DNA of 4,370 nt from a virus (Duplodnaviria > Heunggongvirae > Uroviricota > Caudoviricetes). Made by a program: the position numbers and the translations under genes. Within the stretch, counting starts at the first letter, position 1. Every line of letters begins with the position of its first letter. The stretch lies in IMG/VR virus record IMGVR_UViG_2671181064_000008; one strand, 5' to 3'. Below the pieces are notes generated by a model. It worked only from the letters and a program-made list of their open reading frames with translations, did no database searches and was not told the origin of the DNA. Positions 181 through 4,370 of the stretch are shown here, one piece after another.

Positions 181-370
181 AAAAAGTGCAATAGATCGCA
201 TCACTTTTATGTCTGGTTTTGCTGATGCGTTAATTCAGGTTGGATGGCTGGTCGAAAATGACGGAGGGCTTTCTCTACCTAACTTTGAACGTCATAACGG
301 AAAAAGCTCTAAAAAAAACGGGCGGTTACAAACGAGCGAGTAACAAAAATACGCGAACTGAAACGAAAAG

Positions 371-389
371 GTAACGCTGCCAGCGTTAC
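371..389. promoter_or_regulatory. 19-bp dyad GTAACGC-N5-GCGTTAC (iteron/operator-like site B); arms extend to 9 bp (GTAACGCTG / CAGCGTTAC)
   Basis: Exact inverted arms at 371-377 and 383-389. An extra GCGTTAC half-site sits at 406-412 and a GTTAC/GTAAC pair at 325-344. Confidence 0.45.
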
Positions 390-414
390 ACAAACGGATC
401 AAAAAGCGTTACCA

Positions 415-434
415 GAGGAAGAGGAAGAGGAAGA
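415..434 (+). repeat. (GAGGAA)x3 hexanucleotide tandem repeat encoding a Glu6 acidic linker in the initiator
   Basis: gaggaagaggaagaggaaga read directly; translates EEEEEED in frame 1. Confidence 0.8.
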
Positions 435-788
435 TCTAAATACTGATCTCCCCCTCGCCAAAAACGAGCGTCTAAAAAATTCGAGCCGGAGGCTATTGAG
501 CTGCCCGATTGGTTGCCGGAAACACTCTGGCATGAGTGGGTCCGGTTCAGACAGGCATTGCGAAAACCGATTCGAACGGAGCAGGGCGCTAACGGGGCGA
601 TACGGGAACTGGAAAAATTCCGTCAGCAGGGTTTTACACCTGAGCAGGTGATTCGACACAGCATCGCCAATGAATACCAGGGCCTGTTCGCGCCGAAAGG
701 TGTTCGGCCTGAGACGTTGCTCCGACAGGTTAACACCGTCTCGTTGCCGGACAGTGCGATCCCGCCAGGCTTCAGGGGGTAACGGACC

Positions 789-3117: not shown

Positions 3118-3434
3118 NNNNNNNNNNNNNNNNNNNNNNNNNNNNNNNNNNNNNNNNNNNNNNNNNNNNNNNNNNNNNNNNNNNNNNNNNNNNNNNNNNN
3201 NNNNNNNNNNNNNNNNNNNNNNNNNNNNNNNNNNNNNNNNNNNNNNNNNNNNNNNNNNNNNNNNNNNNNNNNNNNNNNNNNNNNNNNNNNNNNNNNNNNN
3301 NNNNNNNNNNNNNNNNNNNNNNNNNNNNNNNNNNNNNNNNNNNNNNNNNNNNNNNNNNNNNNNNNNNNNNNNNNNNNNNNNNNNNNNNNNNNNNNNNNNN
3401 NNNNNNNNNNNNNNNNNNNNNNNNNNNNNNNNNN
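3118..3434. other. Run of 317 N (masked or gap); content unknown
   Basis: Read directly. Confidence 1.
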
Positions 3435-3956: not shown

Positions 3957-4310
3957 ATGGCACATATACAACTGGTCAAACAAACCTCTTCCGGATTACT
4001 TCTCCCGGCGACGCCGGAGAGTTGCGATTTTCTGCATCAAATCAAAATAGGTGAGTGGATACACGCAGACTTTAAGCGTGTGTGTAACTACGCATTCCAC
4101 AAGCGTTTTTTCAAACTCCTGCAACTGGGTTTCGATTACTGGACTCCGGTCGGTGGGGCGATCACGCCTCGCGAACGAAAACTGGTGTCCGGTTTCGTTG
4201 ATTACCTGTGTGAATCAGTAGGCCGGGAACATACGCCAGCTCTGAGCGAAGCCGCAGAGCAATTGAGGTGTACTGGCAATAGCGGACACTACCATTTGTT
4301 CTTTTTTTAA
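3957..4310 (+). CDS. Hypothetical prophage protein, 117 aa as written; may be truncated by a frameshift in a T7 tract at its 3' end
   Basis: ATG 3957 with GGAG 7 nt upstream (the TTG at 3915 in the ORF track lacks an RBS). Ends TAA 4308-4310 immediately after T7 (4301-4307). One extra T would keep the frame open to the window end. Confidence 0.45.
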   Translation: MAHIQLVKQTSSGLLLPATPESCDFLHQIKIGEWIHADFKRVCNYAFHKRFFKLLQLGFDYWTPVGGAITPRERKLVSGFVDYLCESVGREHTPALSEAAEQLRCTGNSGHYHLFFF

Positions 4311-4370
4311 GCAGCCATCTGATGATATTTTTCCCTGAAGGCTGCCGGGGAGATATTCCCCAGACGAGAG

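Follow-up and report, generated by a model that had tools for sequence, protein, structure and literature searches.

A replication initiation pseudogene with an IS600 insertion and two small indels in a Rac-like prophage remnant of Shigella sonnei

The window, by which we mean the whole stretch of 4,370 nucleotides analysed here, is a Rac-like prophage remnant of Shigella sonnei with one copy of IS600 at each edge. All of its stretches that are free of N are 100% identical to an S. sonnei locus (L003). The list of open reading frames shows an initiator-like frame in three pieces (80–343, a frame without a start codon, and 513–782), followed in order by a DnaC-like gene (from position 789), a DUF977 gene, a zinc-ribbon gene, QueH, a small Rem-like gene and a DUF1367 frame (3957–4310). 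The same module is found by megablast at 98–99% identity in many complete genomes of E. coli, in which the features are named “hypothetical protein” or ydaV, and phage records annotate it as ydaU/ydaV or as “DNA replication protein O/DnaC-like”. The best record is that of E. coli FDAARGOS_944 (locus L001), with an intact initiator gene of 262 codons and, after it, ydaV, DUF977, a hypothetical gene, QueH, hokD, another hypothetical gene and a DUF1367 gene of 199 codons. When the whole window was compared with L001 by BLAST, positions 1–104 and 4264–4370 were found to be non-prophage sequence.

The window contains two runs of N (1231–1271 and 3118–3434), which, compared with the identical S. sonnei loci, are masks that do not preserve length. 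The 41 N of the first stand for 303 bp, namely the 3′ end of an intact ydaV of 248 codons, and the 317 N of the second stand for 277 bp with a hok-family toxin gene. That these runs are true gaps, or that ydaV is truncated, was ruled out by the unmasked S. sonnei loci, which are identical on both sides of the masks and have ydaV intact with 248 codons. Since the masks stand for other lengths, ydaV is untruncated in the real genome, and distances in the window that extend over the masks are unreliable. In the window the gene for this DnaC-like helicase loader can be read on the plus strand from 789 to 1230, its first 147 codons before the mask (NCBIfam PRK12377, E = 9e-87; DnaC, E = 1.5e-47). 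An apparently intact queH for epoxyqueuosine reductase (2293–2958; Pfam QueH, E = 1.8e-65) separates the replication genes from the hok locus.

Immediately upstream of ydaV, at 106–782 on the plus strand, is what is left of a ydaU-like replication initiation gene, a pseudogene that comprises the 3′ 226 codons and is 98.9% identical to the intact gene of FDAARGOS_944. The annotation as initiator came from searches of PHROGs and of PDB sequences. Along its whole length the intact E. coli protein has a match in PHROG 2509 “replication initiation protein” (E = 1.2e-89), and its residues 170–262 resemble the C-terminal domain of the primosomal protein DnaT (2ru8, E = 9.5e-5). For the intact initiator there was no useful match in Pfam or NCBIfam, and DUF1376 (PF07120) was not found. 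Over its last 124 residues the protein shares 81% identity with the 285-aa YdaU of the K-12 type, and for the N-terminal residues 1–138 BLASTP gave no alignment to that protein. By these comparisons the initiator is a mosaic relative of YdaU which shares with it only the C-terminal domain and which is not a DUF1376 protein. The putative name “initiator” is supported by this homology and by the place of the gene upstream of the DnaC-like ydaV. In the literature on ydaU and ydaV only incidental mentions of the two genes were found.

The coding sequence of the pseudogene runs in frame 2 to 343, in frame 1 from 313 to approximately 449, and from 447 onwards in frame 3, where it ends with the stop codon at 780–782. 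Close homologs have one uninterrupted open reading frame instead, which has 262 codons in L001 and is likewise seen in many full-length representatives of the family clusters. Between positions 105 and 1230 the window differs from L001 by one substitution and two indels; within the initiator gene the differences are an A6 for the A8 tract, a 10-bp segment and one synonymous base only. Both small lesions, the one in the A tract and the 10-bp deletion, fall within the linker, acidic and basic in composition, that joins the two domains of the protein.

A third lesion, larger than these, is the insertion of IS600 into codon 36. Positions 1–105 of the window are the left end of an IS600 copy on the minus strand (copy 1), with the terminal inverted repeat TGAGGTAGCCTGAG... 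and the start of orfA (MSRKTQRYSKEFK), and are 100% identical to the IS copies of L003. They are followed at 106–108 by GGT, the right copy of a 3-bp target-site duplication within codon 36 of ydaU, as is evident from a comparison of L003 with L001: where the latter has the uninterrupted GGGAAGGTTATTCGC, the former reads ...GGGAAGGT, then IS600, then GGTTATTCGC. As a result of the insertion, the part of the initiator gene that is in the window lacks its start codon and codons 1–36; in L003 these 36 codons are found beyond IS600 as an open reading frame of 41 codons. The element of L003 is 1264 bp long, has TGAGGT... ends with imperfect terminal inverted repeats of the type TG...CA, and generated a target duplication of 3 bp. 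It is 99.8% identical to copies in RefSeq genomes of E. coli annotated “IS3-like element IS600 family transposase”, its orfA matching HTH_Tnp_1 and its orfB matching rve and NCBIfam transpos_IS3.

A second copy of IS600 (copy 2) forms the other edge of the window. Its right end on the minus strand (4264–4370) has the inverted repeat TGAGGTGTACTGG... and, from orfB, the 3′ end; in L003, copy 1 of IS600 finishes on the right with a sequence 100% identical to positions 4263–4370. The two copies, which have the same orientation (L003: 4763–6026 and 10406–11671), bracket a prophage segment of 4.16 kb. No target duplication was found at the junctions of copy 2, and its far flank is a fragment of an integrase gene; together these point to an IS-mediated deletion of late prophage genes. 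In four draft assemblies (L007, L010, L011 and L012; approximately 3176–5962) the left IS600 is preceded by genes of another prophage, with a 285-aa DUF1376 YdaU and a truncated ydaV, rather than by the 5′ fragment of our ydaU. This layout reflects either an IS600-mediated recombination of two Rac-like prophages or assembly chimeras over the repeat.

Copy 2 also accounts for the end of the DUF1367 frame. The gene is represented on the plus strand by its first 102 codons (3957–4263), which match positions 1–101 of the 198 positions of Pfam PF07105 (E = 1.7e-46). Homology to the intact DUF1367 gene of L001, with its 199 codons, stops at 4263 in codon 102; IS600 begins at 4264, and it is IS600 copy 2 that supplies the stop of the frame 3957–4310. 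The original prediction had seen this frame broken at a T7 tract given as 4301–4307. The tract is at 4302–4308, lies within IS600, is invariant in every copy of IS600 and overlaps the stop codon of orfB on the minus strand, and an extra base in it would merely lengthen the frame, antisense to the transposase gene. Where the tract ends (4307–4310), the stop of the plus-strand frame and that of the minus-strand orfB both use the palindrome TTAA. The DUF1367 frame is thus truncated by the second IS600 copy, probably together with an IS-mediated deletion; a frameshift is not what ended it.

With respect to the A8 tract (311–318, plus strand), the original prediction, which placed a change of frame there, was borne out. 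Frame 2 closes at 341, and frame 1, which is blocked by a TAA at 310–312, opens no earlier than 313; the first switch must therefore fall within 313–341, and in the alignment with the intact homolog the only indel of this region is the one in the A tract. What reads TCT AAAAAA CGG in L001 (an A6, encoding S-K-K-R) is an A8 in the window. The lysine pair KK is present at this site in 80 of 120 cluster representatives of the family, and KKK in none. Judged from these sequences, the conserved state of the tract is KK, which is written as A6 in the closest relative, and the tract of the window is two bases longer. It had been predicted that one added base restores the frame. Arithmetically this is correct, and alleles with A9 exist; it does not describe the conserved state, which is A6 and is shorter than the A8 rather than longer.

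The A tract has not the same length in all assemblies. Among the S. sonnei contigs A8 was counted approximately 565 times, A7 three times, and A9 a handful of times. The A9, which encodes KKK in frame, is present in a few contigs labelled S. sonnei (L013, L014 and L015, with the tract at 2052, 1858 and 1728, respectively). These contain a copy of this prophage whose upstream DNA is 99.9% identical to that of L003. The A9 allele has no IS at codon 36; instead, it is interrupted near codon 137, after ...CAAAAAGCG (L015, 1839–1868), by an IS600-like end with one mismatch in the inverted repeat. It represents either an independent IS insertion in the same gene of another lineage or a second copy of the prophage. 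The A8 may have arisen from A6 by the gain of two bases or from A9 by the loss of one.

The three contigs with A7 (L016, L017 and L018) have the tract at 1720, 1720 and 299, respectively. One of them, the 4.8-Mb contig L017, has in addition a C4 for a C5, an A5 for an A6, and ydaV and transposase genes that are split, a pattern typical of homopolymer errors in long reads, and the A7 tracts of L016 and L018 may be real variants. In a minority of assemblies the tract thus still varies or is miscalled. Whatever the direction of change, the A tract is a hot spot of slippage, and the gene whose linker contains it is also dead through other lesions.

The second change of frame was originally assigned to the A6 tract at 474–479. 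This tract (codons AAA AAA of SKKF) is no lesion, its sequence TCT AAA AAA TTC being identical in the intact homolog, and the homology in frame 3 (PPRQKRASKK) starts at approximately 449, already upstream of it. The lesion proper is a deletion of 10 bp, whose junction is marked by the TCCCCCT at 449–455 (plus strand), the survivor of two direct repeats of 7 bp: L001 has GATCTCCCCCTAAATCCCCCTCGCC and the window has GATCTCCCCCTCGCC, one repeat and the spacer being lost. It should be noted that both frames are open over 447–649 (approximately 200 bp), so that a map of stop codons alone would leave the second switch anywhere within this range. The claim that the lesions all point in the same direction holds as arithmetic for the two within ydaU, since +2 (or −1) and −10 each shift the frame by −1; it does not extend beyond these two. 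Upstream of the deletion, at 415–432 on the plus strand, is an in-frame hexanucleotide repeat (GAGGAA)3 encoding EEEEEE, which is no frame lesion. The repeat is polymorphic in length in the assemblies of S. sonnei: the window, L001 and 6 of the 10 loci fetched have 18 nt and the others 36 or 42 nt, always in frame.

The lesions are common to nearly all sampled S. sonnei assemblies. An exact-sequence look-up of the 87-aa product of 80–343, which includes the IS junction and the A8-specific tail KKNGRLQTSE and is named in Shigella sonnei (e.g., FORC11_0721), found it on 492 contigs, indexed in 481 blocks and ranging from less than 2 kb to whole chromosomes, and a 67-aa version of the A8-specific product was found on 73 further contigs. 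The 89-aa C-terminal reading frame (513–782) corresponds to FORC11_0720, and the 117-aa fusion product of DUF1367 and IS600 is present on 531 contigs. In 10 of 10 independent loci fetched, the A8, the deletion junction and the A6 of the second tract were all present. When the 5′ fragment was joined to the rest, IS600 and one GGT were removed, the A8 was changed to A6 and the 10 bp were restored, the result was a reading frame of 262 aa with zero differences from the intact E. coli protein WP_038340159. Repair of the A tract alone, be it to A6 or to A9, yields only 215–216 aa before a stop.

The initiator gene also contains two perfect 19-bp palindromes of the type GTAACGC-N5-GCGTTAC (162–180 and 371–389), of which 0.01 would be expected in the window; they bracket the A8 tract. 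Of the six GCGTTAC half-sites in the window five are within 162–412, including one at 406–412, where 0.39 would be expected. The origin of phage lambda lies inside gene O, and by analogy the palindromes look like a candidate cluster of initiator-binding sites or an origin inside the gene.

How can an initiator gene in three frames be explained? The favoured explanation at the outset was that homopolymers had been under-called by one base each and that the real gene is intact. Miscalls of this kind do exist at the locus, as is exemplified by the A7, the C4, the A5 and the split neighbour genes of L017, and one base added to the A8 does restore the frame locally. However, the A8-specific protein is encoded on approximately 500 contigs, from short drafts to whole chromosomes, and all ten loci inspected agree base for base on the A8 and the deletion. 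Moreover, the A8 is longer than the tract of the conserved intact gene, a 10-bp deletion and an IS junction cannot be miscalled homopolymers, and two of the three tracts concerned are not the sites of lesions. Even with an A9 the gene would still be broken, by the stop after 216 aa and by the IS600 at codon 36. We therefore reject under-calling as the leading explanation and consider it very improbable. An even smaller chance is given to recoding, in which two programmed −1 frameshifts, or transcriptional slippage on the A8, would result in a functional initiator; programmed frameshifting had been deemed unlikely from the beginning, and we agree. The heptamers A_AAA_AAC (313–319, frame 2) and A_AAA_AAT (474–480, frame 1) are both in the −1 register of the incoming frame, and in some bacteria and IS elements RNA polymerase can slip productively on runs of 8–9 A (PMC1088944). 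A-rich heptamers, and an A8 near a frame boundary, are indeed what the locus has in common with dnaX (A_AAA_AAG), with orfAB of the IS3 family and with mxiE of Shigella (PMC5009743; PMC1088944). Unlike in these systems, the split layout is not conserved, the homologs being single reading frames with KK encoded by A6 at the site; there is no stimulatory structure, the 81-nt stretches downstream of the two heptamers folding no better than their shuffled versions (z-scores −1.13 and −1.60); IS600 has cost the gene its start codon and codons 1–36, and no start codon is present in frame 1; and one of the two boundaries is the scar of a deletion upstream of an A6 that also occurs in intact genes. 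Transcriptional slippage is typified by a run of approximately nine or more A or T that is conserved across homologs (PMC1088944), whereas here an A8 was found only in S. sonnei and an A6, in frame, elsewhere.

Length variation of the A tract could also be thought of as a selected, phase-variable switch in which A6, A7, A8 and A9 toggle the expression of the initiator, and four lengths are indeed found among close relatives in E. coli and S. sonnei. This is again most improbable, because nearly all S. sonnei contigs have the same A8 (approximately 565 versus three with A7 and a handful with A9), because the gene is independently dead by the IS600 insertion and the 10-bp deletion, because the A9 contigs, too, have an IS600-like insertion further into the gene, and because some of the A7 calls are from assemblies with other homopolymer errors. 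A little more credit, albeit still slight, may be given to the more modest ideas that slippage of RNA polymerase on the A8 yields some frame-restored transcript or that the length of the tract once tuned the function of the initiator or origin.

The remaining explanation, which had originally been named as giving the same picture, is genuine pseudogenisation in a decaying prophage, and it is the correct one: the homologs are single reading frames, and undoing the lesions restores the intact protein. We are highly confident that the initiator gene is a true pseudogene with three independent lesions in a defunct Rac-like prophage of S. sonnei and that the DUF1367 frame was truncated by IS600. 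The course of events that we infer is the following. IS600 entered codon 36 with duplication of the 3-bp target GGT, which cut the promoter, the start codon and codons 1–36 off from the rest. Replication slippage in the linker between the domains would have generated the A8, either from the conserved A6 (+2) or via an A9 intermediate that was in frame (−1), and a slipped-strand deletion would have removed 10 bp between the two TCCCCCT direct repeats. A functional product would then most probably no longer be formed. Both small indels have textbook signatures of replication slippage, one being a change in an A tract and the other the loss of a repeat plus spacer between 7-bp direct repeats, and differ from known cases in nothing.

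The locus thus has its closest parallels within Shigella itself. IS600 has expanded in all Shigella species, and in S. sonnei 50% of the pseudogenes are due to insertion of an IS and a further 12% to an IS in combination with other inactivating mutations (Hawkey et al., 2020; PMC7373316). The gene described here fits the latter class. It shares with the pseudogenes interrupted in the course of the expansion of IS1, IS2, IS4, IS600 and IS911 (PMC7373316) the cut by IS600 with target duplication, the frameshifting indels, the occurrence of the lesions in nearly all sampled assemblies of the species, and a second IS copy with a deletion. Nothing material distinguishes it from them, except that the gene belongs to a cryptic prophage rather than to metabolism. 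The order of genes (repressor, cro-like gene, ydaT, initiator, DnaC-like ydaV) is that of the Rac prophage of E. coli K-12; however, YdaU from K-12 has a DUF1376 N-terminal domain, whereas the initiator here has an unrelated one. What we have before us is therefore an ordinary pseudogene that is explained by already known processes.

There are consequences for annotation and for the reading of similar loci. The frames 80–343, 513–782 and 3957–4310, which have been deposited as hypothetical or bacteriophage proteins, are better treated as fragments of pseudogenes. A homopolymer near a change of frame should not be assumed to be its cause: in the present case a single intact homolog sufficed to move one lesion by approximately 25 bp to a deletion between direct repeats and to turn another into an IS junction. 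The result is mainly a negative one, in that an apparent artefact of sequencing chemistry, or an apparent case of double recoding, is the usual decay of a gene in a Shigella genome rich in IS elements.
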